Shown: positions 1 through 42,863, counted from the first letter of the stretch. The stretch is DNA of 64,000 nucleotides from Clostridia bacterium (GCA_017620205.1 JAFZQX010000010.1:5534-69533); one strand, 5' to 3'. Notes: a model not told the origin generated them from the letters alone. Numbers and translations are program-made.

Positions 1-1
1 T

Positions 2-898
2 CCGACTACGGGCGTAACTCTGAATAAGAGTACATTAACCCTTAAGAAGGGCGATAAGGAAACGCTGGTTGCGACGGTTGAACCGTCAAATGCAACGGAT
101 AAGAGTATTAATTGGCGCACGTCTGATACTTCCGTTGTTACGGTTTCAAACGGAATTGTAACCGCTGTCGGTGCCGGTACGGCTAAAGTTTATGCACGTA
201 CTGTAGACGGCGAAGTTGCAGCATGTCAGGTTACGGTAACAGACGGCACTGTGCAGCCGCCCGTAAGTAACGGGCCTGTGATAATCGTATCAAATGCGAC
301 CGGTTCGCCGGGCAAGACGGTAAATGTAACTGTTGATATTTCCGGCAACAAAGGTTTTGCAAACCTAGGTATCGAAGTTTCTTATGATAAATCTGTTATG
401 ACGCTTACATCTGCTGCAAATAACACAAACATAGGTGCAACATATACTGCGGCACAGTACATATCTGCAAATCCATATAATATGATATGGGACAGCGCAA
501 CAAGCAATATAACATTTAACGGAACGCTTGCCACACTCACGTTCAGTATAAAAGAAAATGCGGCCGACGGTGTATATCCGATATCAGTAAAATATTACAA
601 AGGTATAAACGGTAACTACCAAGATGGTGTTGACGTAAATTATGATTCTAATTTCAATGCGCTTGGATTAAGCTATGTGCCGGGTGAAATAAAAGTTTCA
701 CAACATACGCCCGGCGATATTAACGGTGACGGCAGGGTAAATAATCAGGACGGAACATATCTTCTCCGTTACCTTGCAGGTTGGACTGTTGATATTGTTG
801 AGGAAGCACTTGATGTAAACGGTGACGGAAGAATAAACAATCAGGATGGAACAGTGCTTCTGCGATATCTTGCAGGTTGGTCAATTGACATTCATTAA
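2..898 (+). CDS. Surface protein with Big_2 Ig-like domain, cohesin domain and C-terminal type I dockerin; partial at 5' end, reading frame open from the window start
   Basis: Frame 2 is open from base 2. Big_2-like N-terminus (VTLNKSTLTLKKGDKETLVATVEPSNATDKSINW). Cohesin-like beta-sandwich pattern (SPGKTVNVTVDISGNKGFANLGIEVSYDKSVMTL). Two dockerin Ca-binding repeats (DINGDGRVNNQDGTYLLRYLAGW and DVNGDGRINNQDGTVLLRYLAGW). Confidence 0.6.
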   Translation, partial: PTTGVTLNKSTLTLKKGDKETLVATVEPSNATDKSINWRTSDTSVVTVSNGIVTAVGAGTAKVYARTVDGEVAACQVTVTDGTVQPPVSNGPVIIVSNATGSPGKTVNVTVDISGNKGFANLGIEVSYDKSVMTLTSAANNTNIGATYTAAQYISANPYNMIWDSATSNITFNGTLATLTFSIKENAADGVYPISVKYYKGINGNYQDGVDVNYDSNFNALGLSYVPGEIKVSQHTPGDINGDGRVNNQDGTYLLRYLAGWTVDIVEEALDVNGDGRINNQDGTVLLRYLAGWSIDIH

Positions 899-914
899 GG
901 GAGGCAGTTAAAAA

Positions 915-1700
915 ATGAAAAAGTGTTCGGCAACAGTTATTATTTGTTTTTTGTTATTATCACTGTTTAACATAAATGTATTTGCTGCCAAAACGAATAT
1001 TAGCATAGGAACAATATCATGCGAGATTGGCGAAATGGTAAGTGTGCCGGTAGAAATTTCAGGTAACACCGGTTTTTCAAACCTTGGCATCGAAATAGGG
1101 TATGACAGCAGCTCTTTGATTCTTAAAAGCGTTACGCCCGGTAATGTAGGGGCAACATACACAGCAGCGCAAAGCATGTCGGAAAACCCATATAATATGA
1201 TATGGGACAGCGCAACAAGCAATATAACATTTAACGGAACGCTTGCAACGCTGACGTTTGAGGTTTTTCAAGATGCCGCACCGGGAAATTACCCCATTAC
1301 GGTAAGCTTCTATAAAGGTAGAGACGGCGATTATATAGACGGTACGGATGTAAACTATGACGGGAATTACGAACCGCTGAGCATTGCATATAACAATGGA
1401 CTTTTGAAGGTAAAAGATTCGGAGAACAAGAACAGCATAACGGTTTCCAAAGTTCAAACCGGCAGCACGCTCAATGTTAAAGCAAACCTTGAGTCTGATG
1501 AAAGTGTGAACGGCATGGTAATAGCTGCTCTGTTCGATTTAAACGGCAGACTCATTAAAGTTAAATCTTGTGAAGCTGAAAGCGAAGTTGATTTTTCGTT
1601 CAGTAACACAAAAGACGCTGCGTTTGTTAGAGTTTTCTGGTGGGACAGCGTTGAAGGGTTAAAACCCAAATCAAGCAAAGTAATTGAAAATCTGAAATAA
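915..1700 (+). CDS. Secreted cohesin-domain protein (signal peptide plus cohesin plus unknown C-terminal domain)
   Basis: N-terminal signal peptide (MKKCSATVIICFLLLSLFNINVFA). Cohesin-like domain paralogous to the upstream gene, sharing NPYNMIWDSATSNITFNGTLATLTF. RBS GGGAGG sits upstream. Confidence 0.55.
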   Translation: MKKCSATVIICFLLLSLFNINVFAAKTNISIGTISCEIGEMVSVPVEISGNTGFSNLGIEIGYDSSSLILKSVTPGNVGATYTAAQSMSENPYNMIWDSATSNITFNGTLATLTFEVFQDAAPGNYPITVSFYKGRDGDYIDGTDVNYDGNYEPLSIAYNNGLLKVKDSENKNSITVSKVQTGSTLNVKANLESDESVNGMVIAALFDLNGRLIKVKSCEAESEVDFSFSNTKDAAFVRVFWWDSVEGLKPKSSKVIENLK

Positions 1701-2715: not shown

Positions 2716-3597
2716 TTACTCACCTGCAATAATATCGTTTACGGGCACTGTCAAAAACGAAGCTATTTTCATGCGGCTGAATTTCTTTTTTGCTTTTTCG
2801 GCTTTTTCACTGTCCGTAAAAATGCCGAAAACAGCGCTTCCGCTGCCGGTCATAACGCTGCCCAAAGCGCCGCATTCAAGCATTATGCCCTTATACTTAT
2901 TAAGTTCTTTATAGTAAGGAGCAACAGCATTTTCCAAAACGTTATAAAGCCTTACGGAAATTTCATGCAGGTTGCCGCTGTCAAGACATTTTATTATCTC
3001 GTCCGTTTTCGGATGCATTGTGCTTACCGTTTTGTCGTAATCCGCAAAAGCGGATTTTGTGTTTATTGACATTTTCGGTTTTACAATTAAAATATGGCAG
3101 TCGGGGAGAGGGGACAAAGGCGTAAGTATTTCGCCGAGACCTTCCGCAAGACACGTGCCGCCCGTCATGCAGAAAGGCACGTCCGCGCCGCAGCGAAGTC
3201 CTATTTCGAGCAGCTTTTCTTTTCCTAAAGGACTGCCGTAAATACCGTTTAACGCAAACAGCGTTGCTGCCGCGTCCGCGCTGCCGCCTGCAAGGCCCGC
3301 GCCCATGGGAATATTCTTTTCAATATCTATTTTAATTCCGTCTTTTTTATTCAGTTCGGACAGAAAGTATTCAGCCGCGAGATATGCTATATTGCGCCTG
3401 TCTGTCGCGAGGTATGAAAGATTTGTTGAAACTTCTATACTGTCGCCGTCTGTTTTTTCTACGGTGACCTTGTCATAAAGACTGACGGACTGCATTATTG
3501 ATTTTAAAAGATGGTAACCGTCATCACGTCTGCCGGCAATATCGAGCGACAGATTTATTTTAGCATACGCCCTGATACTTTTTTTCGGATAATTCAT
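2716..3597 (-). CDS. ispE: 4-diphosphocytidyl-2-C-methyl-D-erythritol kinase
   Basis: GHMP kinase motifs (AKINLSLDI, PMGAGLAGGSADAAA). 293 aa. Confidence 0.85.
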   Translation of the reverse strand: MNYPKKSIRAYAKINLSLDIAGRRDDGYHLLKSIMQSVSLYDKVTVEKTDGDSIEVSTNLSYLATDRRNIAYLAAEYFLSELNKKDGIKIDIEKNIPMGAGLAGGSADAAATLFALNGIYGSPLGKEKLLEIGLRCGADVPFCMTGGTCLAEGLGEILTPLSPLPDCHILIVKPKMSINTKSAFADYDKTVSTMHPKTDEIIKCLDSGNLHEISVRLYNVLENAVAPYYKELNKYKGIMLECGALGSVMTGSGSAVFGIFTDSEKAEKAKKKFSRMKIASFLTVPVNDIIAGE

Positions 3598-3598
3598 A

Positions 3599-4597
3599 TC
3601 AGCTTAAATTTTCCTTTTCACTTTTTTTGTCGCGGAGCATAAGCTTTAAAACCGCGTCGCGCGGCGGCATTTCTTCAAATAAGATCTCGTACGCCGCGTG
3701 CGTAATCGGCATTGAAACGCCGTATTTTTCCGAAAGCGCATAGGCTATTTCGGTAGCGTAAACGCCTTCGACAACCATCTGAACTTTTTCCTGCGCCTCT
3801 TTGGGCGATATGCCCTGACCGATGAGCAGCCCCGCGCGCCTGTTTCTCGAATGCATACTCGTGCAGGTAACGATAAGGTCGCCAACACCGGAAAGACCGG
3901 AAAACGTGTGCGGATCAGCGCCCATTGATGCGCCGAGACGTGAAATTTCGGCAAGACCGCGCGTCATCAAAGCTGCTTTTGTGTTGTCTCCGAGCCCAAG
4001 CCCGTCCGATATACCCGCGCAGAGCGCTATAACGTTTTTAAGCGCCGCGCCCACTTCAACGCCTATCACATCGTCATTTGTATAAACGCGGAAATAGTCG
4101 TTCATAAACGTGTCCTGAACAAGCTCCGCCGCTTTTTTGTCTTTTGAAGCCGCGACAATAGTTGTAGGGATTTGCCGCGCAACCTCTTCCGCGTGCGAAG
4201 GACCGCTTAAAACAACAACGGGGTTATTAAGGTGCACCGCAATGGCTTCCGAGAGGCGCATAAGACCTGTTTTTTCAAAGCCTTTCGCAACGTTTACGAT
4301 GGGGACGGCAGGGTTTGCAAATCTCTTAAACTGCTCCGCCGTTTTAAAAACCGCGTGCGACGGCACGGCGAATATGTATAAATCCGCGTCTGCAGCGGTT
4401 TGTAAATCGTATGTATAGCTGATATTCTCTGGTAGCTCTATACCGGGGAGACACGCCTTGTTTTCGCGCGCCGCGGCTAAAGAGTCGCTCTCTTCTTTTT
4501 TCCACGACCAAAGCGTTACGGAAAAGCCTTTTTCCGCAAGCAGTTTTGCGATGGCGCAGCCCCAGCTGCCCGAGCCTATAACTGAAATCTTTTTCAT
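3599..4597 (-). CDS. gpsA: NAD(P)H-dependent glycerol-3-phosphate dehydrogenase
   Basis: N-terminal Rossmann motif (ISVIGSGSWGCAIAKLL). 332 aa, with typical GpsA conservation. Confidence 0.85.
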   Translation of the reverse strand: MKKISVIGSGSWGCAIAKLLAEKGFSVTLWSWKKEESDSLAAARENKACLPGIELPENISYTYDLQTAADADLYIFAVPSHAVFKTAEQFKRFANPAVPIVNVAKGFEKTGLMRLSEAIAVHLNNPVVVLSGPSHAEEVARQIPTTIVAASKDKKAAELVQDTFMNDYFRVYTNDDVIGVEVGAALKNVIALCAGISDGLGLGDNTKAALMTRGLAEISRLGASMGADPHTFSGLSGVGDLIVTCTSMHSRNRRAGLLIGQGISPKEAQEKVQMVVEGVYATEIAYALSEKYGVSMPITHAAYEILFEEMPPRDAVLKLMLRDKKSEKENLS

Positions 4598-4603
4598 TTT
4601 GTG

Positions 4604-5215
4604 TTATCCTTCCTTTTTGCTGAAGCTGAGTTTTCTCTCGTTGCCTTCAATAAGTCTCTTTATATTAGCGTGGTGTCTTATTATAACAAGCACCGCAAGG
4701 CATGTCATAAAAATAAGAATTGCACTATTTTCTCTGTTGTAGAAGAAGCATATAATGGGCAGGGAAACTGCGCCGAGTATTGATCCGAGCGATACGTATT
4801 TTGTAAGCGCTATAACCACAACGCCGATTAAAAGCGCCAAAAGCGCAGGAATGGGCTGTAAAACGAGAGCAACCGCAAACGATGTCAAAACACCTTTGCC
4901 GCCGCGAAAACCGTAGTACAGCGGGAAATTGTGTCCCAAAACAGCGCCCGCGCCCGCACATACATCTGCATACGGCACATCTTTAAATATAAGGCGCGCC
5001 AAAAGCACAGATATGACGCCTTTTAATATATCGACAATAAGCGTAACTGCCGCCGCGCCCTTGCCGAGCGAGCGCAGAGTGTTTGTTGTGCCGGCGTTGC
5101 CGCTTCCCATCTCTCTTATATCTTTGCCGCGGCTTTTTGATATGATAATGGAAGCGTTAATACTTCCCAAAAGATAACCCATTAAAGCAGCCAAAACTGC
5201 TAAGAATATTTTCAT
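4604..5215 (-). CDS. plsY: Glycerol-3-phosphate acyltransferase PlsY
   Basis: 203 aa membrane protein with the GSGNAGTTN motif. Its start overlaps the der stop (ATGA). Confidence 0.85.
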   Translation of the reverse strand: MKIFLAVLAALMGYLLGSINASIIISKSRGKDIREMGSGNAGTTNTLRSLGKGAAAVTLIVDILKGVISVLLARLIFKDVPYADVCAGAGAVLGHNFPLYYGFRGGKGVLTSFAVALVLQPIPALLALLIGVVVIALTKYVSLGSILGAVSLPIICFFYNRENSAILIFMTCLAVLVIIRHHANIKRLIEGNERKLSFSKKEG

Positions 5216-6540
5216 TGCTTTTCTCCGTTTCTTTCTCTGATTATAAATCTTACGGGCGTACCCGTGAGCCCGAACGTTTCGCGGATTCTGTTTTCAATGT
5301 AGCGCACATATGAAAAATGCGCAAGCGTCGCGTCGTTTACAAAAAGGATGAAGGTAGGCGGCTTTGTTCCTGCCTGCGTCATATAATAGATTTTAAGGCG
5401 CTTGCCCTTATCGGACGGCGGCTGAACCTTTGCCGTAGCGTCGTTTAAAACGTCGTTTAAAGTGCCCGTTGAAATGCGGCGCGTATTTTGCACATAAACT
5501 TCTTTTACTCTCTCAAACAGATTATCTATTCTCTGGCCCGTTTTGGCGGAGATAAACTCAATGGGCGCGTACTGCATAAAGCTGAGTTTATCGTATACGT
5601 TTCTTTTAAATTCGCCCATTGTTTTTGTGTCTTTTTCTACTGCGTCCCATTTATTAACGGCAACAACAATGCCCTTGCCGCCCTCGTGCGCGTAGCCCGC
5701 GATTTTCGCGTCCTGCTCGCTGACGCCCTCTTCGCCGTCTATCATAATAAGCGCGACGTCGCTTCTCTCAAGAGCCGCCAGAGCGCGGATGACGCTGAAA
5801 CGCTCAATGTTGTCGGTCACCTTGCTTTTGCGGCGTATTCCCGCCGTATCTATGAAAATATACTTTGTCCCGTCTTTTTCAAAATATGAGTCAATAGCGT
5901 CGCGCGTTGTACCCGCTACGCCGCTTACTATCATTCTGTTTTCGCCTAAAATTTTGTTTATAAGAGAGCTTTTGCCTGCGTTCGGCTTTCCTATAACGGC
6001 AACTTTTATATCGCCCTCAGCTGTTTCGTCTTCTCCCTCTTCGGGGAAGTATTTGAAAACCTCGTCAAGCAAATCGCCTACACCCATTCCGTGAATTGAT
6101 GAAACGGGCATGGGCTCGCCTAAACCGAGGTTATAAAATTCGTATAAAGACATCGGCGGCTCACCGGGGGAGTCTACCTTGTTGCATGCTACAACAATAG
6201 GCTTTGAAGCCTTCTGAAGCATTGCGGCAACTTCCATGTCTGACGCCGTCATGCCGTCACGCGAGTCAACAACCAAAACGGTTACGTCGGCTGTGTCTAT
6301 GGCTATCTCCGCCTGCACGCGCATCTCGGCTAAAACCGCGTCGCCGCCCGCGGGCTCAATACCGCCCGTATCGATTATAATAAACTGTCTGCCGTTCCAC
6401 TCCGCGTCTGCGTAAATTCTGTCCCTCGTTATGCCGGGAGTGTCCTCGACAATCGAGATGCGTTTGCCCGCTATTTTATTAAAAAGAGTTGATTTTCCTA
6501 CATTCGGGCGACCTACAATCGCCACAATCGGTTTTGCCAT
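5212..6540 (-). CDS. der: Ribosome-associated GTPase Der (EngA), two GTP-binding domains
   Basis: Two G-domains (GRPNVGKSTLFN and GKPNAGKSSLIN) plus a KH-like C-terminus. Start chosen at the ATG giving MAKPIVAIVG, with RBS AAGGA upstream; the ORF-track start at 6555 is 5 codons longer. Confidence 0.85.
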   Translation of the reverse strand: MAKPIVAIVGRPNVGKSTLFNKIAGKRISIVEDTPGITRDRIYADAEWNGRQFIIIDTGGIEPAGGDAVLAEMRVQAEIAIDTADVTVLVVDSRDGMTASDMEVAAMLQKASKPIVVACNKVDSPGEPPMSLYEFYNLGLGEPMPVSSIHGMGVGDLLDEVFKYFPEEGEDETAEGDIKVAVIGKPNAGKSSLINKILGENRMIVSGVAGTTRDAIDSYFEKDGTKYIFIDTAGIRRKSKVTDNIERFSVIRALAALERSDVALIMIDGEEGVSEQDAKIAGYAHEGGKGIVVAVNKWDAVEKDTKTMGEFKRNVYDKLSFMQYAPIEFISAKTGQRIDNLFERVKEVYVQNTRRISTGTLNDVLNDATAKVQPPSDKGKRLKIYYMTQAGTKPPTFILFVNDATLAHFSYVRYIENRIRETFGLTGTPVRFIIRERNGEKQ

Positions 6541-6551
6541 AATCTGTCCTT

Positions 6552-7847
6552 TCAATCACCTTTGATTTTATCCCATAAATCGTATCCCGAGCAGTCGGTA
6601 ACTATAATATCGGCGCCGAGCGCTTCGCGAACGTTTGTAACCGTGGTGTCGTCTAAAAACGTTTCCGTTCCGTGACGGAGCATAACGCTCGGTATCAAAA
6701 CGCGCCGGCTTTTTATTTTCCCCTTAAGCTGTTTTATAATGTCGCCGCCCGTTATAAGACCTGCAACGGTTATCCTCTCGCCGAAGAAATCGTTGCGCAC
6801 CGTGTGCACCGCTATATCCATATTATTATATCGCGTTTTTGCCATGTTTGCAAGCTTTTTTATCTCATCTCCCGCCGCCATTCCGGTTATAATATCGGCG
6901 GCCGCAGAGCCTTTGGGAGCGCTGTTTAAAGCATCCGAAAATTCATCGTGCATACTGCGTATGAGTCCCACTCCGTTTTCGATTTGGTGATACCCTTCGT
7001 ATTCTTCCTCTGCGGGGATGGGGTATCCCGCCGAAAGATAAAACTCGTCCGCACCGTAAATAAAGCGCGTCCCGAGCTTATTAAGGCAGTCCTTCTGCAT
7101 TTTTAAAATATCGTTTAAAACTGTCTTGCTGTCCTCTTTTTCAAAAGGCTGTGCGCAGTACAGGTTTTCGCGGAATTTCGTTATTCCCATAGGCACAGCC
7201 GAAACGCTTGTGACATAGGGGTAGAGTGACGCAAGATCGCTTACCGTTTTGTAAAACTCCGCACCGTCGTTTACGCCTTTGACGAGAACTATCTGGCAGT
7301 TCATATGTATGTGTCCCGAAGCGAGGCGCCGCATCTGCTCCATTATCCTCTCCGCCTTCGGGTTTTTAAGCATAAACTTGCGCAGACACGGGTTAGTAGT
7401 GTGAACGGATACGTTTATAGGCTCCATGTGCATGCGGATGATTTTATCGAGATCGCTGTCCTTTGCATTTGTCAGCGTTACGTAATTTCCCGTAAGAAAA
7501 GAAAGGCGTGAATCGTCGTCTTTAAAATAGAGGGATTCGCGCATGCCGCGGGGGAGCTGGTCGATAAAGCAGAAAATGCACTTGTTTGCGCAATGCTTTG
7601 CACCGCCGAAAAGCGCGCTTTCGAAAATAACGCCCAGTTCCTCGCCGTACGGATTTTCAATTTCTATTATTTCGCGCTCGCCGCCCGTAATAACTTCAAG
7701 CTCAATTACTTCGCCGCAGAAATAGAATCTCAAATCCAGCTCATCTTCAATTTTATGGCCGTTGCAGGAAACAATTTCGTCTCCCGGCTGAAGACCGAGT
7801 TCCTCGGCAATACTGCCGGGCTCGACAGCCTGAATTTTGTTATTCAC
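6552..7847 (-). CDS. PDZ domain plus DUF512 (radical-SAM-like) protein
   Basis: N-terminal PDZ-like segment (GSIAEELGLQPGDEIVSCNG) and a Cys cluster (CANKCIFCF). This is the conserved position upstream of der in Clostridia. Confidence 0.6.
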   Translation of the reverse strand: MNNKIQAVEPGSIAEELGLQPGDEIVSCNGHKIEDELDLRFYFCGEVIELEVITGGEREIIEIENPYGEELGVIFESALFGGAKHCANKCIFCFIDQLPRGMRESLYFKDDDSRLSFLTGNYVTLTNAKDSDLDKIIRMHMEPINVSVHTTNPCLRKFMLKNPKAERIMEQMRRLASGHIHMNCQIVLVKGVNDGAEFYKTVSDLASLYPYVTSVSAVPMGITKFRENLYCAQPFEKEDSKTVLNDILKMQKDCLNKLGTRFIYGADEFYLSAGYPIPAEEEYEGYHQIENGVGLIRSMHDEFSDALNSAPKGSAAADIITGMAAGDEIKKLANMAKTRYNNMDIAVHTVRNDFFGERITVAGLITGGDIIKQLKGKIKSRRVLIPSVMLRHGTETFLDDTTVTNVREALGADIIVTDCSGYDLWDKIKGD

Positions 7848-8301
7848 GGGTATTCTCCTTAAGTCTTCTGTCTATATCGCGTTTAGCGTCGCGCTGAGCC
7901 ATTGCCTCGCGCTTGTCATACTGTTTCTTACCTTTGCAAAGACCTATCTCCATCTTAACTCTGCTGCCCTTAAAATATAAAGATAAAGGGATAATGGTGC
8001 AGCCTTCTCTCTGCACCTGACCGAAAAGCTTTAAAATCTCTTTTTTGTGCATCAAAAGCTTTTTGTCACGCATTGGGTCTTTGTTGAATATGTTGCCGTG
8101 CTCGTATGGCGTTACATGAACGCCCGTCGCAAATATCTCACCGTTTTTAATTTCGCAGTAGCTGTCCTTAAGGTTTACTTTGCCCGCACGGATAGATTTA
8201 ACTTCCGTGCCGAACAGCTCAACTCCCGCCTCATATTTATCTAAAACAAAATAGTCGTGATACGCTTTTTTGTTGTTTGCTATAGTTTTATTATCCATCA
8301 T
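7840..8301 (-). CDS. smpB: SsrA-binding protein SmpB
   Basis: 153 aa. Matches the SmpB consensus (KTIANNKKAYHDYFVLDKYEAGVELFGTEVKSIRAGKVNLKDSY). Confidence 0.9.
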   Translation of the reverse strand: MMDNKTIANNKKAYHDYFVLDKYEAGVELFGTEVKSIRAGKVNLKDSYCEIKNGEIFATGVHVTPYEHGNIFNKDPMRDKKLLMHKKEILKLFGQVQREGCTIIPLSLYFKGSRVKMEIGLCKGKKQYDKREAMAQRDAKRDIDRRLKENTRE

Positions 8302-18900: not shown

Positions 18901-21279
18901 TTAAATACTCGAATAATATTCTTCGATTTTCGGACGGGCTTTTTCAAAATACACCAAAATTTTGCTGTCAAATTGAGTGCCGTCGCCGTCCATAATTATC
19001 TTATGAGCCTCTTCAAATGACATTTTTTCTTTATACACGCGCTTTGAAACAAGTGCGTCATAAACATCGGCAACCGCCATGATCCGCGCTTCTATGGGTA
19101 TCTCTTCGCCCGTGAGTTTTTCGGGATAGCCTGTGCCGTCATAGCGCTCGTGGTGGTAATGCGCCATGTTTATGGCTATTTGTCTGAACCTTTCGTTATC
19201 AACGCTTTCTACGATCTGTGAAAGAATGCGCGCGCCTTCTTTTGCGTGAGTTTTCATAACCTCATATTCTTCCGGCGTAAACCTGCCGGGCTTGCGTAAA
19301 ATAGCGTCGTCAACGGCGATTTTGCCGATATCATGCATCGGCGCGGCGTTTATTATGCAGTCGCAAAACTCATCGTCTAACTCAAGACTTTCGTCTTTTT
19401 GCATCTCTTCCGTCAGAATCTTGACGACATCGCTCGTTCTCTTTATATGGCCGCCCGTGGAATTATCGCGGCTTTCAATCATGGTAAGCATTCCTATTAC
19501 AAAGTTTTGCTGCAGATCAGCTATGTGCTTGTTCTTTGTTTCAACATCGGTTTTCAATGCGGTCTCGTATTTTTTCATGGAGAAATAGTTGCTGAGAAAC
19601 CCGCCGACTGAAATGGCAAACAAGCTGAGTACCACTATAAGACCTTTGATATTTGTCATATTCAGTCTTTTGGTTAAGACATCCATATACTCGCTTTCGC
19701 TCATTTCGAGAATTTCTTGCGGTACTGTTTTGTCATGGTATGCATGAAAATCATTTAATACATTTAAAGTCGATTCCTGTTCAAGCTTGTCCATCCATAA
19801 AATTCCCAGCAAAAGGATAATGGACACCAATACAATCCATACGATAATAGCTTTGCCGAAATGCCTTGCGCGGTCTTTGGAAATTACACGGTGGAAGAAT
19901 ATCATACCAAAAACCGACCAAAGGATAAATAAAAGATACGTTTCGGAGCTTAAAGAATCGGAGCGCAGACCCGGAATGAGTATAAACACGCCAAAGACAA
20001 ACATTGCTATTAAAACAATGAGCCCTGCGGCAAAACTGCTTTTATTGTTATCCTGCTTTGCGCATTTCATTGCAGCAGCGGCAACAAACCCGTAGAGAAA
20101 AACAGCAATAATTGTTGTAACGTCAACAATCCAGCCAATGGCAGAGCGCCCGAGGAAAAGTATGAATAACGAAATCGAGCCGACGAACAAAATATTATTT
20201 GCCGGAATTCCTTTTTTATTAAGGTTTGTAAATCTTTCGGGAAGTATTGAGTCCTTACCGATTACGCGCATCATGCGCGAAAGAGCCCATATATTTGAAA
20301 TAAGACTTGTTGCTATAAGTGCAAAAAGCGAAAAGAAAAGCAAAGTTATGCCGAAACCGCCGAGATAATAACCGGCGGCGTAAAACGCGGGAAGCGCCTT
20401 GAGGCCGGAAAGATTGCCTAAATCGTTTATATATTCAACCCAGCTGCCGTATTCCGGGGGATACGCCGTAACGGAAAGAAGCGTTACAAAAATATACAGA
20501 GCTGTTGTTATGATTATGGACAACGCCAAAACCCCGAAAACACGTTTTTTGGGGAAATTAAACTCAGTTGACGAGTGCGTAACGCTTTCAAAGCCTATAA
20601 ACGCCCATGGAGATACAGACGCTATTTTTGCAACTTGAGCAATTGGCAGGCTGTCGGGTGCAAAAGAAGGGTTAAACCCCGAAGAGCCCGATAAAAAACG
20701 GATTATACCGACTATAAAGCAAACAGAAATACCGGTAACAAATACGGCGGCAAGGAATACCATTGCGTTTGCCGTTGCTTTTTTGCTGTTTATCATGATA
20801 AATACGGTAAGTGCTATAACAGAAGCTGTCAGAAGCAGCTCGCCGGCGTAGATTTCATATCCGAAAATAGTATAGAGATAGCCAAAACGGAATACGTCTC
20901 CGAAAATGTAGCGCACAAAAAGCGGAACCGCCGTAGCGTTTGCCCAAAAGATAGAAGCATAAAGCAAAAATACAAACCAGGAGATTAGAAAAGCACGGTC
21001 GTAGCCGAATATTTTTTTCGTAAAAAAGTATACGCCTGTGCCTTCCGGATAACGGTTTGCAAGATAGTGATAGTTTAGACATACCAAAAGCATGATAGCG
21101 GCGCCTGTTAAAAGGCCCAAAACGGTGCCCCAAGGTCCCGCCTGTTTAAGATATGTGTTGCTGGTGACTACCAGCGACCCCCAGCCGACGCTTGTGCCTA
21201 CGGCAAATGCCAAAACTGTTAAAGGAGACAATATGGGTTTTAGTTCCTGAACGGATGAATTAGATTTCATATTTTTCAC
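18901..21279 (-). CDS. c-di-GMP phosphodiesterase: N-terminal about 12-TM amino-acid-permease-like (APC-fold) domain fused to a C-terminal HD-GYP domain
   Basis: C-terminus carries HDIGKIAV...HHERYDGTGYP (HD-GYP). The N-terminal 500 aa are polytopic and resemble an amino acid permease (VLAFAVGTSVGWGSLVV...). Confidence 0.7.
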   Translation of the reverse strand: MKNMKSNSSVQELKPILSPLTVLAFAVGTSVGWGSLVVTSNTYLKQAGPWGTVLGLLTGAAIMLLVCLNYHYLANRYPEGTGVYFFTKKIFGYDRAFLISWFVFLLYASIFWANATAVPLFVRYIFGDVFRFGYLYTIFGYEIYAGELLLTASVIALTVFIMINSKKATANAMVFLAAVFVTGISVCFIVGIIRFLSGSSGFNPSFAPDSLPIAQVAKIASVSPWAFIGFESVTHSSTEFNFPKKRVFGVLALSIIITTALYIFVTLLSVTAYPPEYGSWVEYINDLGNLSGLKALPAFYAAGYYLGGFGITLLFFSLFALIATSLISNIWALSRMMRVIGKDSILPERFTNLNKKGIPANNILFVGSISLFILFLGRSAIGWIVDVTTIIAVFLYGFVAAAAMKCAKQDNNKSSFAAGLIVLIAMFVFGVFILIPGLRSDSLSSETYLLFILWSVFGMIFFHRVISKDRARHFGKAIIVWIVLVSIILLLGILWMDKLEQESTLNVLNDFHAYHDKTVPQEILEMSESEYMDVLTKRLNMTNIKGLIVVLSLFAISVGGFLSNYFSMKKYETALKTDVETKNKHIADLQQNFVIGMLTMIESRDNSTGGHIKRTSDVVKILTEEMQKDESLELDDEFCDCIINAAPMHDIGKIAVDDAILRKPGRFTPEEYEVMKTHAKEGARILSQIVESVDNERFRQIAINMAHYHHERYDGTGYPEKLTGEEIPIEARIMAVADVYDALVSKRVYKEKMSFEEAHKIIMDGDGTQFDSKILVYFEKARPKIEEYYSSI

Positions 21280-29704: not shown

Positions 29705-30901
29705 ATGGGAGAGCACCTCTGCATGACAACAAACTGGCTTGACGGCGAGGATAAGGGCAGCGACTGGAACGTTATAAAATTCAGATGCTATGTTTACGAT
29801 GAAAACGGAAACGAAGGCTATTCGCCCGAATATTATATGCACGTCTTTTCAACGGACGCTTTAAAAGCGCGCATTGACGCGGAAAACGCTTTTGAATTTG
29901 AAAGCTGCGAGCCGCAAAACACGGATATCAAAACATCTGCGGGCTACGCCGTTGATTTTACGATGCACCTTAAAGACTTTACAGACTGGATGCATGACAG
30001 CGAGCTTTACGCGCGCCAGTATTTTGAAATAAAAGAAAACGGCATATCGAGCTATATAGACGGCGTTCATTTCTCATATCTCAGAAACGCTCCCGCAAAC
30101 GCGGAAATTATTGAGCATGCAGACCTTTACTGTGGCGATACGCTTATTAAAGAGCTTAAAAAAGAATATAAAGTAACGGTTGAGAAAAAAGAAGAAACAC
30201 AGGCTTCATCATCTCCCGATACTTCCGAAACAGATACCGGGACGGACAAGTATAAGCCCATATATGAGCTTGTAAAGCCGGGAGCCGATTTTTCTGTTGT
30301 CAAACCGATTGAAATTACAAAGCCCATATCGATTGCAGACATTTTTGAGGAGATAGAAAGACCCATAAGCGGAGTTATTTCGTTTGGGGATAAGGATGAA
30401 GAAGAGCTGCCGTTTGAGGACGTTTTAAAAGAGGATTATTTTTATGACGCGGTAAAATGGGCATATACATCTGACCCGAGGATTACGGAGGGCATAGACG
30501 ATAAGCATTTCGGGCCGAAGCGGATTGTAACGCGCGCGCAGGCAATGGCGTTTTTGTGGCGCGCCATGGGAGAGCCGGAGCCTACGTCTAAAACAAACCC
30601 GTTTAAAGACGTAAAGAAAGATGATTATTTCTATAAAGCGGTACTCTGGGCGGTTGAAAAGGGTATAACCGTAGGCACGGACAGCACGCATTTTTCGCCG
30701 GACGACACATGCTCAACGGCGCATATCGTAACCTTCCTGTACCGCACGCTTGAAATAGGCGATGACGGCTATTATGAAGAAGCCGCTTCGTGGGCAAAGG
30801 ATAACGGCTTGCTTGAAAATATAGAAAAGAAGGTATCGCCTTATGTTGCGTGTCCGAGAAGCGATGTAGTTACGTTTTTGTATAGGACTATTGTTAAATA
30901 G
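29705..30901 (+). CDS. S-layer homology (SLH) domain cell-surface protein; C-terminal part of a gene interrupted by an in-frame TAG
   Basis: Three C-terminal SLH repeats (FEDVLKEDYFYDAVKWAY..., FKDVKKDDYFYKAVLWAVEKGIT..., ...DVVTFLYRTIV). No signal peptide of its own. Confidence 0.6.
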   Translation: MGEHLCMTTNWLDGEDKGSDWNVIKFRCYVYDENGNEGYSPEYYMHVFSTDALKARIDAENAFEFESCEPQNTDIKTSAGYAVDFTMHLKDFTDWMHDSELYARQYFEIKENGISSYIDGVHFSYLRNAPANAEIIEHADLYCGDTLIKELKKEYKVTVEKKEETQASSSPDTSETDTGTDKYKPIYELVKPGADFSVVKPIEITKPISIADIFEEIERPISGVISFGDKDEEELPFEDVLKEDYFYDAVKWAYTSDPRITEGIDDKHFGPKRIVTRAQAMAFLWRAMGEPEPTSKTNPFKDVKKDDYFYKAVLWAVEKGITVGTDSTHFSPDDTCSTAHIVTFLYRTLEIGDDGYYEEAASWAKDNGLLENIEKKVSPYVACPRSDVVTFLYRTIVK

Positions 30902-41231: not shown

Positions 41232-42863
41232 GTGAAAGAATTGAGCATAAACAACCTGTGCAGAAACTGGTGGTTTTTAATCTCTGCGGTTGCATTTGCT
41301 GTGTCAAGTGTCAGTCACACGTATGCGTTTTATACTTACGGTTATATTTCTATTATTGGAGTTATTCCGTTTGCTGTATTTGTAGGGGCGCGCTATGAAA
41401 ACATATTAAAAAGTGTATTGAAAACCGGAAAATGTTTTTTAATTCTATCGGCTATATCGGCAATTTCATTGAGCATTGAAAATCAACCTACGCTTTTGTT
41501 GTCCGAGCTACGGGATTTTTTAAGCATTATTCAATATAAAACCGGTATATCAACACATGCTGATTTTTTGGCTTTTGTAATTATACCAAAACTGTTATTG
41601 CCTTTAAACGCTGTATTTTACTTTACTGTGTTGACAAAGATATACACTTTTATTGAAAACGTATTAAAAAAGGTGATAAAGCTCTTTACAAAGAAAGATG
41701 TGATTGTAGCATCGTTACTTTGCGCGGCGTTAATAGTTCTTGTTGCTGTTGCATTTTGTAATGCTGATGGCCTTTCGGGGTATTATAAAAACGGAAATTA
41801 TATATATACAGCTGATATAGGCCGTTTGCTTAAAGGTAATTGCTATACTTCAATAAACCATCTGCAAAATGATATTAGGCAGCCTTTGTTTGCGGTTTTA
41901 TCTGCTCCGTTTTTCGCGCCCATTTCGTTTTTAAATCAAGTTTTTCCAATATCAAAAAGGTTGTTTGGTTTTTTGATAGCAGCAATGAATACCATACTCA
42001 TGTCTTTTTCGTTACTCCTGATCGGCGTTTGTACGGCAGAAGAAAAAACACGAAGAGGTATAATTTTCATGCTTTTTGGTATGTACGCAACGCTTTTATT
42101 TGGTATGGTCATAGAACAGTATCAAGTAGTTATGTTCTGGCTTGTGTTATATATGGTTTACTGTACCCATGTAAAGAACGAACAGATTACAAAAGAAGTC
42201 CTATTTATAGCTACAACCGGTACACTTATTACAAACGGTATCGTTTTTCCGTTAATACTTGAGGATAAAAGTATTAAAAAGATACCGGTTTTGTTATTAA
42301 AAACTGCTCTGATGGGAATTGCAGTGCTCTGCTTATTTGGCAGACTGGGCACACTTTTGAGTGGATATAGGAATGTACAAGAGTTGTTACAAGGGTTTGG
42401 CGGAGCTGAGAGCACTTTTGGCACGAGGTTTTACAAGTTTTTGACGTTTGTTTCCAACTGTTTTATAGCGCCTAATTCATATATGGCAAATGGCGGATGG
42501 CGTTTGGGAGAAGCAAAAAAAACTGCTGTAGTATTTGGTGTTACAGTTTTGGCAATATGCGTTATTAGTTTTTTGATCAACAATAAAAAGTTGTGGTCAA
42601 GAATTAGTTTTGGCTGGGTTGTTTACTCTTTTATAATAGTTTGCTTGATTGGTTGGGGCTTTGCAGATAACAGTGGCCCGATCCTTTATATTCTGTATTT
42701 TGGTTGGGCATATTGTGTAATGATTCATTTGTTCATAGACAAAATATTTGAAAAAATCAGATTGAAACGAGTGGGCTTAATCACGGAGTATGTTTTGGCA
42801 GCTGTCATGCTTTTGTTTAACATATCCCAAATCTCAGTAATGATTACTAAACTATCAATCTGA
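41232..42863 (+). CDS. Large polytopic membrane protein, putative GT-C-type glycosyltransferase partner of the DPPR synthase-like gene
   Basis: 543 aa with more than 12 TM helices and no soluble domains. GTG start 9 nt after AGGAGG. Both genes are AT-rich relative to their neighbours. Confidence 0.35.
   Translation: MKELSINNLCRNWWFLISAVAFAVSSVSHTYAFYTYGYISIIGVIPFAVFVGARYENILKSVLKTGKCFLILSAISAISLSIENQPTLLLSELRDFLSIIQYKTGISTHADFLAFVIIPKLLLPLNAVFYFTVLTKIYTFIENVLKKVIKLFTKKDVIVASLLCAALIVLVAVAFCNADGLSGYYKNGNYIYTADIGRLLKGNCYTSINHLQNDIRQPLFAVLSAPFFAPISFLNQVFPISKRLFGFLIAAMNTILMSFSLLLIGVCTAEEKTRRGIIFMLFGMYATLLFGMVIEQYQVVMFWLVLYMVYCTHVKNEQITKEVLFIATTGTLITNGIVFPLILEDKSIKKIPVLLLKTALMGIAVLCLFGRLGTLLSGYRNVQELLQGFGGAESTFGTRFYKFLTFVSNCFIAPNSYMANGGWRLGEAKKTAVVFGVTVLAICVISFLINNKKLWSRISFGWVVYSFIIVCLIGWGFADNSGPILYILYFGWAYCVMIHLFIDKIFEKIRLKRVGLITEYVLAAVMLLFNISQISVMITKLSI

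Follow-up and report, generated by a model that had tools for sequence, protein, structure and literature searches.

Cohesin-dockerin pairs are usually read as the signature of a cellulosome, and surveys of gut metagenomes count them as such. Peer et al. reportedly described, in 2009, cohesins and dockerins outside cellulosomes. Under one operational definition, a genome counts as a cellulosome producer if it has one or more dockerin-fused glycoside hydrolases together with one or more proteins that bear at least two cohesins; a polypeptide that combines a single cohesin with a single dockerin falls into the class of the ‘monovalent adaptor scaffoldin’ (PMC11557425). In another class, the non-SLH anchoring scaffoldins, Cu-amine-oxidase-like domains are taken as modules that interact with the wall (PMC11557425), and scaffoldins of this kind with such domains occur in Acetivibrio (Dassa 2012, as relayed by PMC11557425). 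In the amylosome of R. bromii, the dockerin of Amy4 binds Amy4's own cohesin (PMC4611034).

Here we describe two co-oriented open reading frames, genes A and B, identified by ORF calling and Pfam searches at the start of a 64-kb stretch of DNA from a Clostridia bacterium (hereafter the window). Gene A encodes a secreted protein that ends in a cohesin and a dockerin, and gene B a smaller protein with a cohesin and a C-terminal domain (CTD). Judged on about 70 kb of sequence and on relatives, the best reading of the pair is a non-cellulosomal system for surface display.

Like the monovalent adaptor scaffoldins, for example ScaC of R. flavefaciens, gene A encodes a secreted polypeptide with one cohesin and one C-terminal dockerin. 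It differs from them in having a long non-enzymatic head and a cohesin-dockerin linker of only about four residues, it is always paired with a cohesin-CTD gene, and there are no dockerin enzymes and no primary scaffoldin in about 70 kb. The Amy4/Sca1 system of R. bromii, from the gut Oscillospiraceae/Ruminococcaceae group, also has a cohesin and a dockerin on one protein, and its small cohesin proteins are cell anchors, as proposed here for gene B (PMC4611034). However, Amy4 is a GH13 amylase, whereas gene A lacks GH13 and has a head of binding and repeat domains, and Amy4's anchor, Sca2, resembles the cell-wall-anchoring protein ScaE of R. flavefaciens, whereas the putative anchor here is the beta-sandwich CTD (PMC4611034). 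The non-SLH anchoring scaffoldins of Acetivibrio, so far as PMC11557425 relays them, combine a cohesin with Cu_amine_oxidN1-like domains, as do gene A and the third genes of two related loci (L003 and L012); as described there they have no dockerin and serve cellulosomes, whereas gene A also has a dockerin. The stand-alone or non-cellulosomal cohesins compared, those of R. flavefaciens ScaG/CohG (4n2o), the C. perfringens GH33/GH84 toxins (2vo8, 2w1n) and Archaeoglobus fulgidus (2xdh), are only 12-21% identical, and none has the CTD or belongs to the two-gene cassette described here. Non-cellulosomal cohesins and dockerins, proteins with both modules and cohesins with Cu-amine-oxidase-like anchors are already known. 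In the literature searched we found no description of the CTD family or of the cassette reported below, with its interchangeable adhesin-like heads, its constant cohesin-dockerin tail with a near-absent linker and its dedicated cohesin-CTD partner gene.

The A-B operon and its modules

Gene A (2-898, plus strand, frame 2) is represented in the window by the C-terminal 298 codons and the stop of an 868-aa secreted protein, its 5' part lying beyond the window edge. The full length was read from positions 3739-6345 of a contig (L001) that matches the window over 6199 nt at 100% identity, window position 1 being position 5448 of that contig. In the full protein a signal peptide is followed, from N- to C-terminus, by two Cu_amine_oxidN1-like domains, two repeats of about 130 aa, a Big_2 domain, a cohesin and a dockerin, and the only Pfam families found in it are Cu_amine_oxidN1, Big_2, Cohesin and Dockerin_1. 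By its Cu-amine-oxidase-like domains it also fits the ‘non-SLH anchoring’ class of PMC11557425. Gene B (915-1700, plus strand) encodes 261 aa, with a signal peptide at aa 1-24 followed by the cohesin and the CTD. An identical protein is present in NCBI (MAG hypothetical protein J5590_02440, Clostridia bacterium), and one contig carrying gene B is part of the XIEF21 ENA metagenome set. An assembly artefact is unlikely, as the reading frame is kept in both genes and independent assemblies have an identical gene B.

The two genes are separated by 16 nt, within which the ribosome-binding site of gene B, GGGAGG, can be read directly at 899-904 on the plus strand, 10 nt ahead of the ATG. Downstream of gene B there is a palindromic hairpin (1751-1781) with a 14-pair stem and runs of A and T on either side, and past it a convergent gene for a TupA-like ATP-grasp protein; the hairpin is probably a bidirectional terminator between the two. 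Because of the 16-nt gap with its ribosome-binding site and the terminator after B, we regard A and B as an operon. Their neighbours in the window are housekeeping genes, namely ispE, gpsA, plsY and der, and glmM, glmS, spoIIE and dxs.

All modules named in the original prediction, a Big_2 domain, a cohesin and a two-repeat type I dockerin in the first protein and, in the second, a cohesin paralogous to that of the first and an uncharacterised domain at the C-terminus, were found as described. The Big_2 (bacterial Ig-like) domain of gene A (2-241, plus strand, as are all modules given here) has a Pfam score of 41.2 bits over aa 2-69 (cut-off 22.8). The cohesin search with PF00963 (cut-off 24.1) gave 40.4 bits for gene A (278-697; aa 95-201) and 50.8 bits for gene B (993-1418; aa 28-131), and Dockerin_1 (PF00404, cut-off 22.9) gave 51.4 bits for the dockerin of gene A (710-895; aa 237-290). 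Both cohesins have the nine-strand jelly-roll beta-sandwich fold. The cohesin of gene A is matched in fold most closely by the R. flavefaciens ScaC cohesin 5lxv_C in Foldseek (E 3e-11) and by 3kcp_A in a PDB profile search (E 5e-13), and the dockerin by 6kg9_A in the latter (E 3e-17). When the 64-aa dockerin was used by itself in a word-indexed homology search, only six short fragments were matched, which was uninformative as to the protein types that carry it.

The dockerin consists of two symmetric and almost identical 22-residue calcium-loop/helix repeats, DINGDGRVNNQDGTYLLRYLAGW and DVNGDGRINNQDGTVLLRYLAGW. The loops, DINGDGRVNNQD and DVNGDGRINNQD, each have D/N/D/N/D as ligands at positions 1, 3, 5, 9 and 12 and are each followed by GTxLLRYLAGW, which is the two-repeat loop-helix organisation of type I. 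Internal repeat symmetry of this kind is typical of type I dockerins with a dual binding mode. In the AF2 model of the part of gene A in the window, a beta domain (aa 1-80) is followed by a low-confidence linker (aa 81-90), and the dockerin helices lie at aa 248-258 and 280-290. The linker between cohesin and dockerin has only about four residues (QHTP); pLDDT is 87-96 over the junction, and pTM is 0.65 despite the floppy Big_2 linker. Across the family of A proteins this very short linker is kept and the dockerin helix LLRYLAGW is conserved.

The cohesins of A and B and a tract of gene conversion

The cohesins of genes A and B are 56% identical. Throughout the family, A cohesins are up to 98% identical between genomes, whereas A and B cohesins within one genome are 42-64% identical, and the two are old, separately conserved lineages. 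The motifs GFxNLGIEIxYD, NPYNMxWDS, NGTLATLTF and YPIxVxYYKG are conserved in both types, and these shared strand motifs lie on the presumed binding face.

A near-identical stretch between the two genes had been noticed in the original prediction, and it is real. It comprises 59 nt of exact identity, 473-531 in gene A and 1188-1246 in gene B (both on the plus strand), that encode PYNMIWDSATSNITFNGTL, and near-identity extends over 468-542 and 1183-1257, which match at 70 of 75 nt. The interval first given for gene A was right; that for gene B (1188-1262) was 5 nt out of register and matches at only 29 of 75 nt. Outside the tract, identity between the two cohesin-coding regions is 58% overall and 36% at third codon positions, and of the codons for conserved residues likewise only 36% are identical. 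Inside it every one of the 19 codons is the same in both genes, and 17 of the 19 are degenerate. The chance of an identical run of 17 codons is about 3e-8, or about 4e-6 with its position allowed for, and the tract is beyond chance because all 17 degenerate codons are identical against 36% outside. Nucleotide constraint across the whole family was considered as a cause and rejected, there being no exact match between A and B of at least 17 nt in L003, L005 or L007.

The idea of gene conversion that came with the original prediction is backed by derived states common to A and B of this organism. A one-residue insertion (DSA-TSN vs DS--TSN) is present in both and in no other A or B cohesin of the family alignment, and among the A and B cohesins of that alignment the Ile of NMIW is found only in these two. 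Since A and B share this unique insertion, the near-identical stretch is, on the comparison of sequences, a local gene conversion between old paralogues. The F and T of TFNGTL are commoner in B-type sequences, a weak hint that gene B may have been the donor. When mapped from solved type I complexes, the tract would span strand 5 of the cohesin, the loop between strands 5 and 6 and the beginning of strand 6, and both strands would belong to the 8-3-6-5 sheet that binds the dockerin. Their homogenisation would fit sockets of A and B that recognise the same plug.

A conserved cassette of uncultured gut Clostridia and its C-terminal domain

The A-B pair is one instance of a conserved cassette of two to three genes in uncultured gut Clostridia. 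Seven relatives were looked up by exact protein, and in each of them a gene for a variable head, a variable number of Big_2 domains, a cohesin and a dockerin is separated by 10-20 nt from a gene whose product has a signal peptide, one cohesin or two, and the CTD. A scan of one genome per species, in which the window's own genome was not represented (best hit 56% identity), found 30 loci. By HMMs built from the family, the A-B arrangement is present in nearly all of these 30 species-level genomes. All 30 loci are from MAGs of uncultured Clostridia, Oscillospiraceae, Ruminococcaceae, Lachnospiraceae or Ructibacterium, and the sources, where named in the record titles of the scan, are ruminant guts or Hadza samples. 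Gene B has two cohesins in some relatives, and about ten cassettes have a third gene, whose divergent cohesin shares only 25-31% identity with those of A and B; in both cases with domain calls (L003 and L012) the third gene also has Cu_amine_oxidN1. There are two to four cohesins per cassette and a single dockerin. The genes around the cassette vary by locus, with integrases, relaxases and toxin-antitoxin pairs among them.

Among 28 distinct A-type proteins, Dockerin_1 was found in 28 and Cohesin in 26. The heads are variable: Big_2 is present in 18, LRR_5/BspA in 14, Glug in five, Flg_new, Lectin_C and Big_3 in three each, RicinB in two and Amidase_6 in one. No GH, PL, CE or CBM domain was found by Pfam in any of the 28. 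Cu_amine_oxidN1 is in the head of only one of them, gene A of the window, and the local arrangement with this head may work differently from that of the relatives.

The CTD of gene B (1428-1697, plus strand) has about 90 aa and forms a seven-strand beta-sandwich of the generic FN3/Ig-like kind. Neither Pfam nor NCBIfam matched this region (aa ~170-261), and no Pfam family covered the CTD in 34 long CTD proteins either. In gene B as a whole, Pfam and NCBIfam find only Cohesin; there is no SLH domain, LPXTG sortase signal, LysM or C-terminal transmembrane helix, and the C-terminus, ...SSKVIENLK, has neither LPXTG nor a hydrophobic tail. With a profile of the CTD, a search of 1.84 billion representatives gave 756 clusters at E <= 1e-3, of which 189 reach E <= 1e-10. 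Of the best 150 hits, roughly 130, in proteins of 240-4066 aa, end at most about 12 residues from the C-terminus, whereas about 20 lie away from it.

The 34 long CTD proteins carry LRR_5, Big_2, cohesin, Metallophos, Laminin_G_3, Flg_new, Glug, RicinB and Lectin_C, a repertoire that is largely that of the heads of A proteins. They have no GH, PL or CE catalytic domain, and among the families listed for them the sole carbohydrate-binding module is one CBM96. The terminal position of the CTD on diverse secreted proteins makes it a candidate anchoring or sorting tag at the cell surface. Because CTD proteins carry the A-type head repertoire in cis, we infer that gene B may supply in trans a tag that in other surface proteins is present in cis. 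The guess in the original prediction that this domain is an anchoring module gains indirect support from its C-terminal placement and from the A-like heads; as a role, anchoring is still a candidate.

Surface display and its alternatives

We propose, with moderate confidence, that A and B are an operon for a non-cellulosomal cohesin-dockerin pair that displays proteins at the cell surface. In this model gene A would be a large secreted surface protein with a variable head and a constant Big_2-cohesin-dockerin tail, its calcium-binding dockerin would plug into the cohesin of B, and the CTD would hold B at the cell envelope. The cohesin of A itself would be a further socket, either for another A or for another dockerin protein, and in this organism the Cu-amine-oxidase-like domains of A may add wall binding. 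Four observations support the model: A and B are strictly linked, each cassette has a single dockerin, A- and B-type cohesins have strand motifs in common, and the dockerin helix is conserved. Precedents are the Amy4 dockerin with its affinity for Amy4's own cohesin (PMC4611034) and the Cu-amine-oxidase-like wall modules of non-SLH anchoring scaffoldins (PMC11557425). Against the model, each cassette has more cohesins (two to four) than dockerins (one), and the true ligands may therefore be other dockerin proteins from elsewhere in the genome; the generic FN3/Ig-like fold of the CTD and its position away from the C-terminus in about 20 of the best 150 hits also speak against it.

The sockets and plugs could also be used head to tail, the dockerin of one A protein binding the cohesin of the next to give a non-covalent adhesin fibre with B as its base on the cell, as in the self-association of R. 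bromii Amy4 (PMC4611034). Each A protein has exactly one socket and one plug, and the roughly four residues between them seem, judged from solved type I complexes, too short for the dockerin to reach the binding sheet of its own cohesin; the strand motifs common to A- and B-type cohesins and the two-cohesin B proteins of some relatives are also consistent with such a fibre. However, the identity of A cohesins between genomes, which reaches 98%, against 42-64% between A and B within a genome may mean that the two types have different ligands, and we consider this polymer unlikely.

A cellulosome, which was the reading of the original prediction, would make A a monovalent adaptor and B an anchoring or accessory scaffoldin, with dockerin enzymes encoded elsewhere in the genome. 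The adaptor part of that prediction is sound so far as architecture is concerned, since gene A has one cohesin and one dockerin per polypeptide, as in the adaptor class of PMC11557425, and this fits a tiered logic. A cellulosome is also favoured by the nearest structural and sequence relatives of both modules, which are cellulosomal type I cohesins and dockerins, by the ruminant gut MAG that is the source of the sequence, and by the spare cohesins of the cassette. Against it, phmmer and the family HMMs found no further cohesin, dockerin or CTD in the window and the 5.4 kb upstream, and no CAZyme is present among the largest ORFs of the same region. Set beside the definition in PMC11557425, no protein with at least two cohesins is encoded in the window, A and B having one each, and no dockerin-fused glycoside hydrolase is found in the window, in the 5.4 kb upstream or among the 28 orthologous dockerin proteins. 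The heads of these 28 proteins are non-enzymatic, the 34 CTD proteins have no GH, PL or CE catalytic domain, and the cassette travels as a self-contained unit, sometimes beside integrases, relaxases or toxin-antitoxin genes. The label ‘cellulosome-type’ is therefore not supported by these 70 kb and the relatives, and a cellulosome completed from elsewhere in the genome seems to us quite improbable.

Very unlikely is an intramolecular clasp, in which the dockerin of A would fold onto its own cohesin as a structural or auto-inhibitory lock and the cohesin of B would serve an unrelated dockerin protein, for although the confident junction in the AF2 model suggests that cohesin and dockerin are one rigid unit, and the conserved very short linker is in keeping with this, such a unit need not involve the canonical interface, a permanently filled plug leaves the linkage of A to a cohesin-only partner in nearly all of 28 cassettes unexplained, and the cohesins of A and B, to judge by the conversion tract and the motifs they share, have a ligand in common.

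A wider version of the surface-display reading, which we offer as speculation of low probability, is that the locus is a portable plug-and-display cassette. The CTD would then be a new anchoring or sorting tag at the surface of monoderms, which hundreds of giant adhesin-like proteins have in cis and B provides in trans, and the constant cohesin-dockerin tails would polymerise the interchangeable heads head to tail into non-covalent fibres rooted in B, in analogy to a sortase pilus.

Under the surface-display reading itself, this lineage would use conserved cohesin and dockerin modules to attach surface proteins of the BspA-type LRR, lectin and Ig-like kinds. If this is true, part of what is counted as ‘cellulosomal’ signal in metagenomes of rumen and gut would reflect adhesion and surface architecture and not fibre digestion. 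The cassette would also be a natural minimal set of socket, plug and anchor for surface display, and the CTD a candidate new anchoring tag in Firmicutes that is directly testable.

Possible cassette mobility and head swapping

Several of the related cassettes from uncultured gut Clostridia (loci L005, L007 and L012) have tyrosine integrase, relaxase, TIR or toxin-antitoxin genes beside them. The A-type proteins have different heads, that is, different N-terminal parts, on Coh-Doc tails that are 84-98% identical (for example, in L007, L012 and L025). Taken together, these neighbours and the similar tails under different heads suggest that the cassettes have moved horizontally and that their heads have been swapped. 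In L004 (NCBI assembly) gene A is a single open frame of 1622 codons (3114-7979), while in L003 (ENA assembly) the same gene (3122-7982) is called as two overlapping genes, one of 1256 aa and one of 375 aa. The discrepancy indicates that the LRR/Flg_new head contains a frameshift or was assembled differently.

In about one third of the related cassettes there is also a third gene, whose cohesin has diverged strongly and is 25-31% identical to those of A and B (L003, 8811-9743; L012, 7273-8223; likewise in L024, L025, L026, L030, L031, L035 and L041). The two third genes with domain calls, those of L003 and L012, also carry Cu_amine_oxidN1. In the window organism this wall-associated domain is carried by gene A, and the cassette is without the third gene.

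Gene A and its upstream neighbour

The contig L001, which is identical to the window over 6199 nt and reaches upstream of it, covers two tyrosine-rich repeats of ~130 aa in the part of gene A that precedes the window (L001 4600-5430, aa ~290-565). They contain the motifs SYPYYxLFY and YGYYN and have no match in Pfam. Only a few nt 5' of gene A lies the stop codon of a gene for a 603-aa Wzy_C/O-antigen-ligase-like membrane protein (L001 1906-3717, a short distance upstream of the window), whose match to Wzy_C, 29.9 bits, is slightly under the Pfam cut-off of 31.7. A promoter-like site (L001 1783-1811) is itself preceded by a terminator-like hairpin. The wzy-like gene, A and B may form one three-gene operon, hinting at glycosylation of, or polymer attachment to, the surface protein.

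Other genes in the window

A 792-aa amino-acid permease (AA_permease_2; 18901-21279, minus strand) is fused to a C-terminal HD/HD_5 phosphohydrolase-type domain, which is an unusual transporter-signalling architecture. The 543-aa ORF at 41232-42863 (plus strand) matches no Pfam family at E <= 1e-5.

Surface anchoring

Two SLH-domain proteins (window 29705-30901 and L001 122-766, both plus strand) imply that this organism has an SLH/secondary-cell-wall-polymer anchoring system. Neither cohesin protein, A or B, uses SLH anchoring. The CTD of gene B (window 1428-1697, aa 172-261) defines a large, unnamed family (P0193-P0333) that comprises 756 clusters at 50% identity in a profile search and has no model in Pfam or NCBIfam. 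In most cases this domain forms the very C-terminal end of its proteins, which are secreted, reach lengths of up to 4066 aa and have heads of the LRR_5, Big_2, Glug, Metallophos, Laminin_G_3 or lectin type. It is a candidate for a novel tag that anchors proteins to the surface, or sorts them, in Clostridia.
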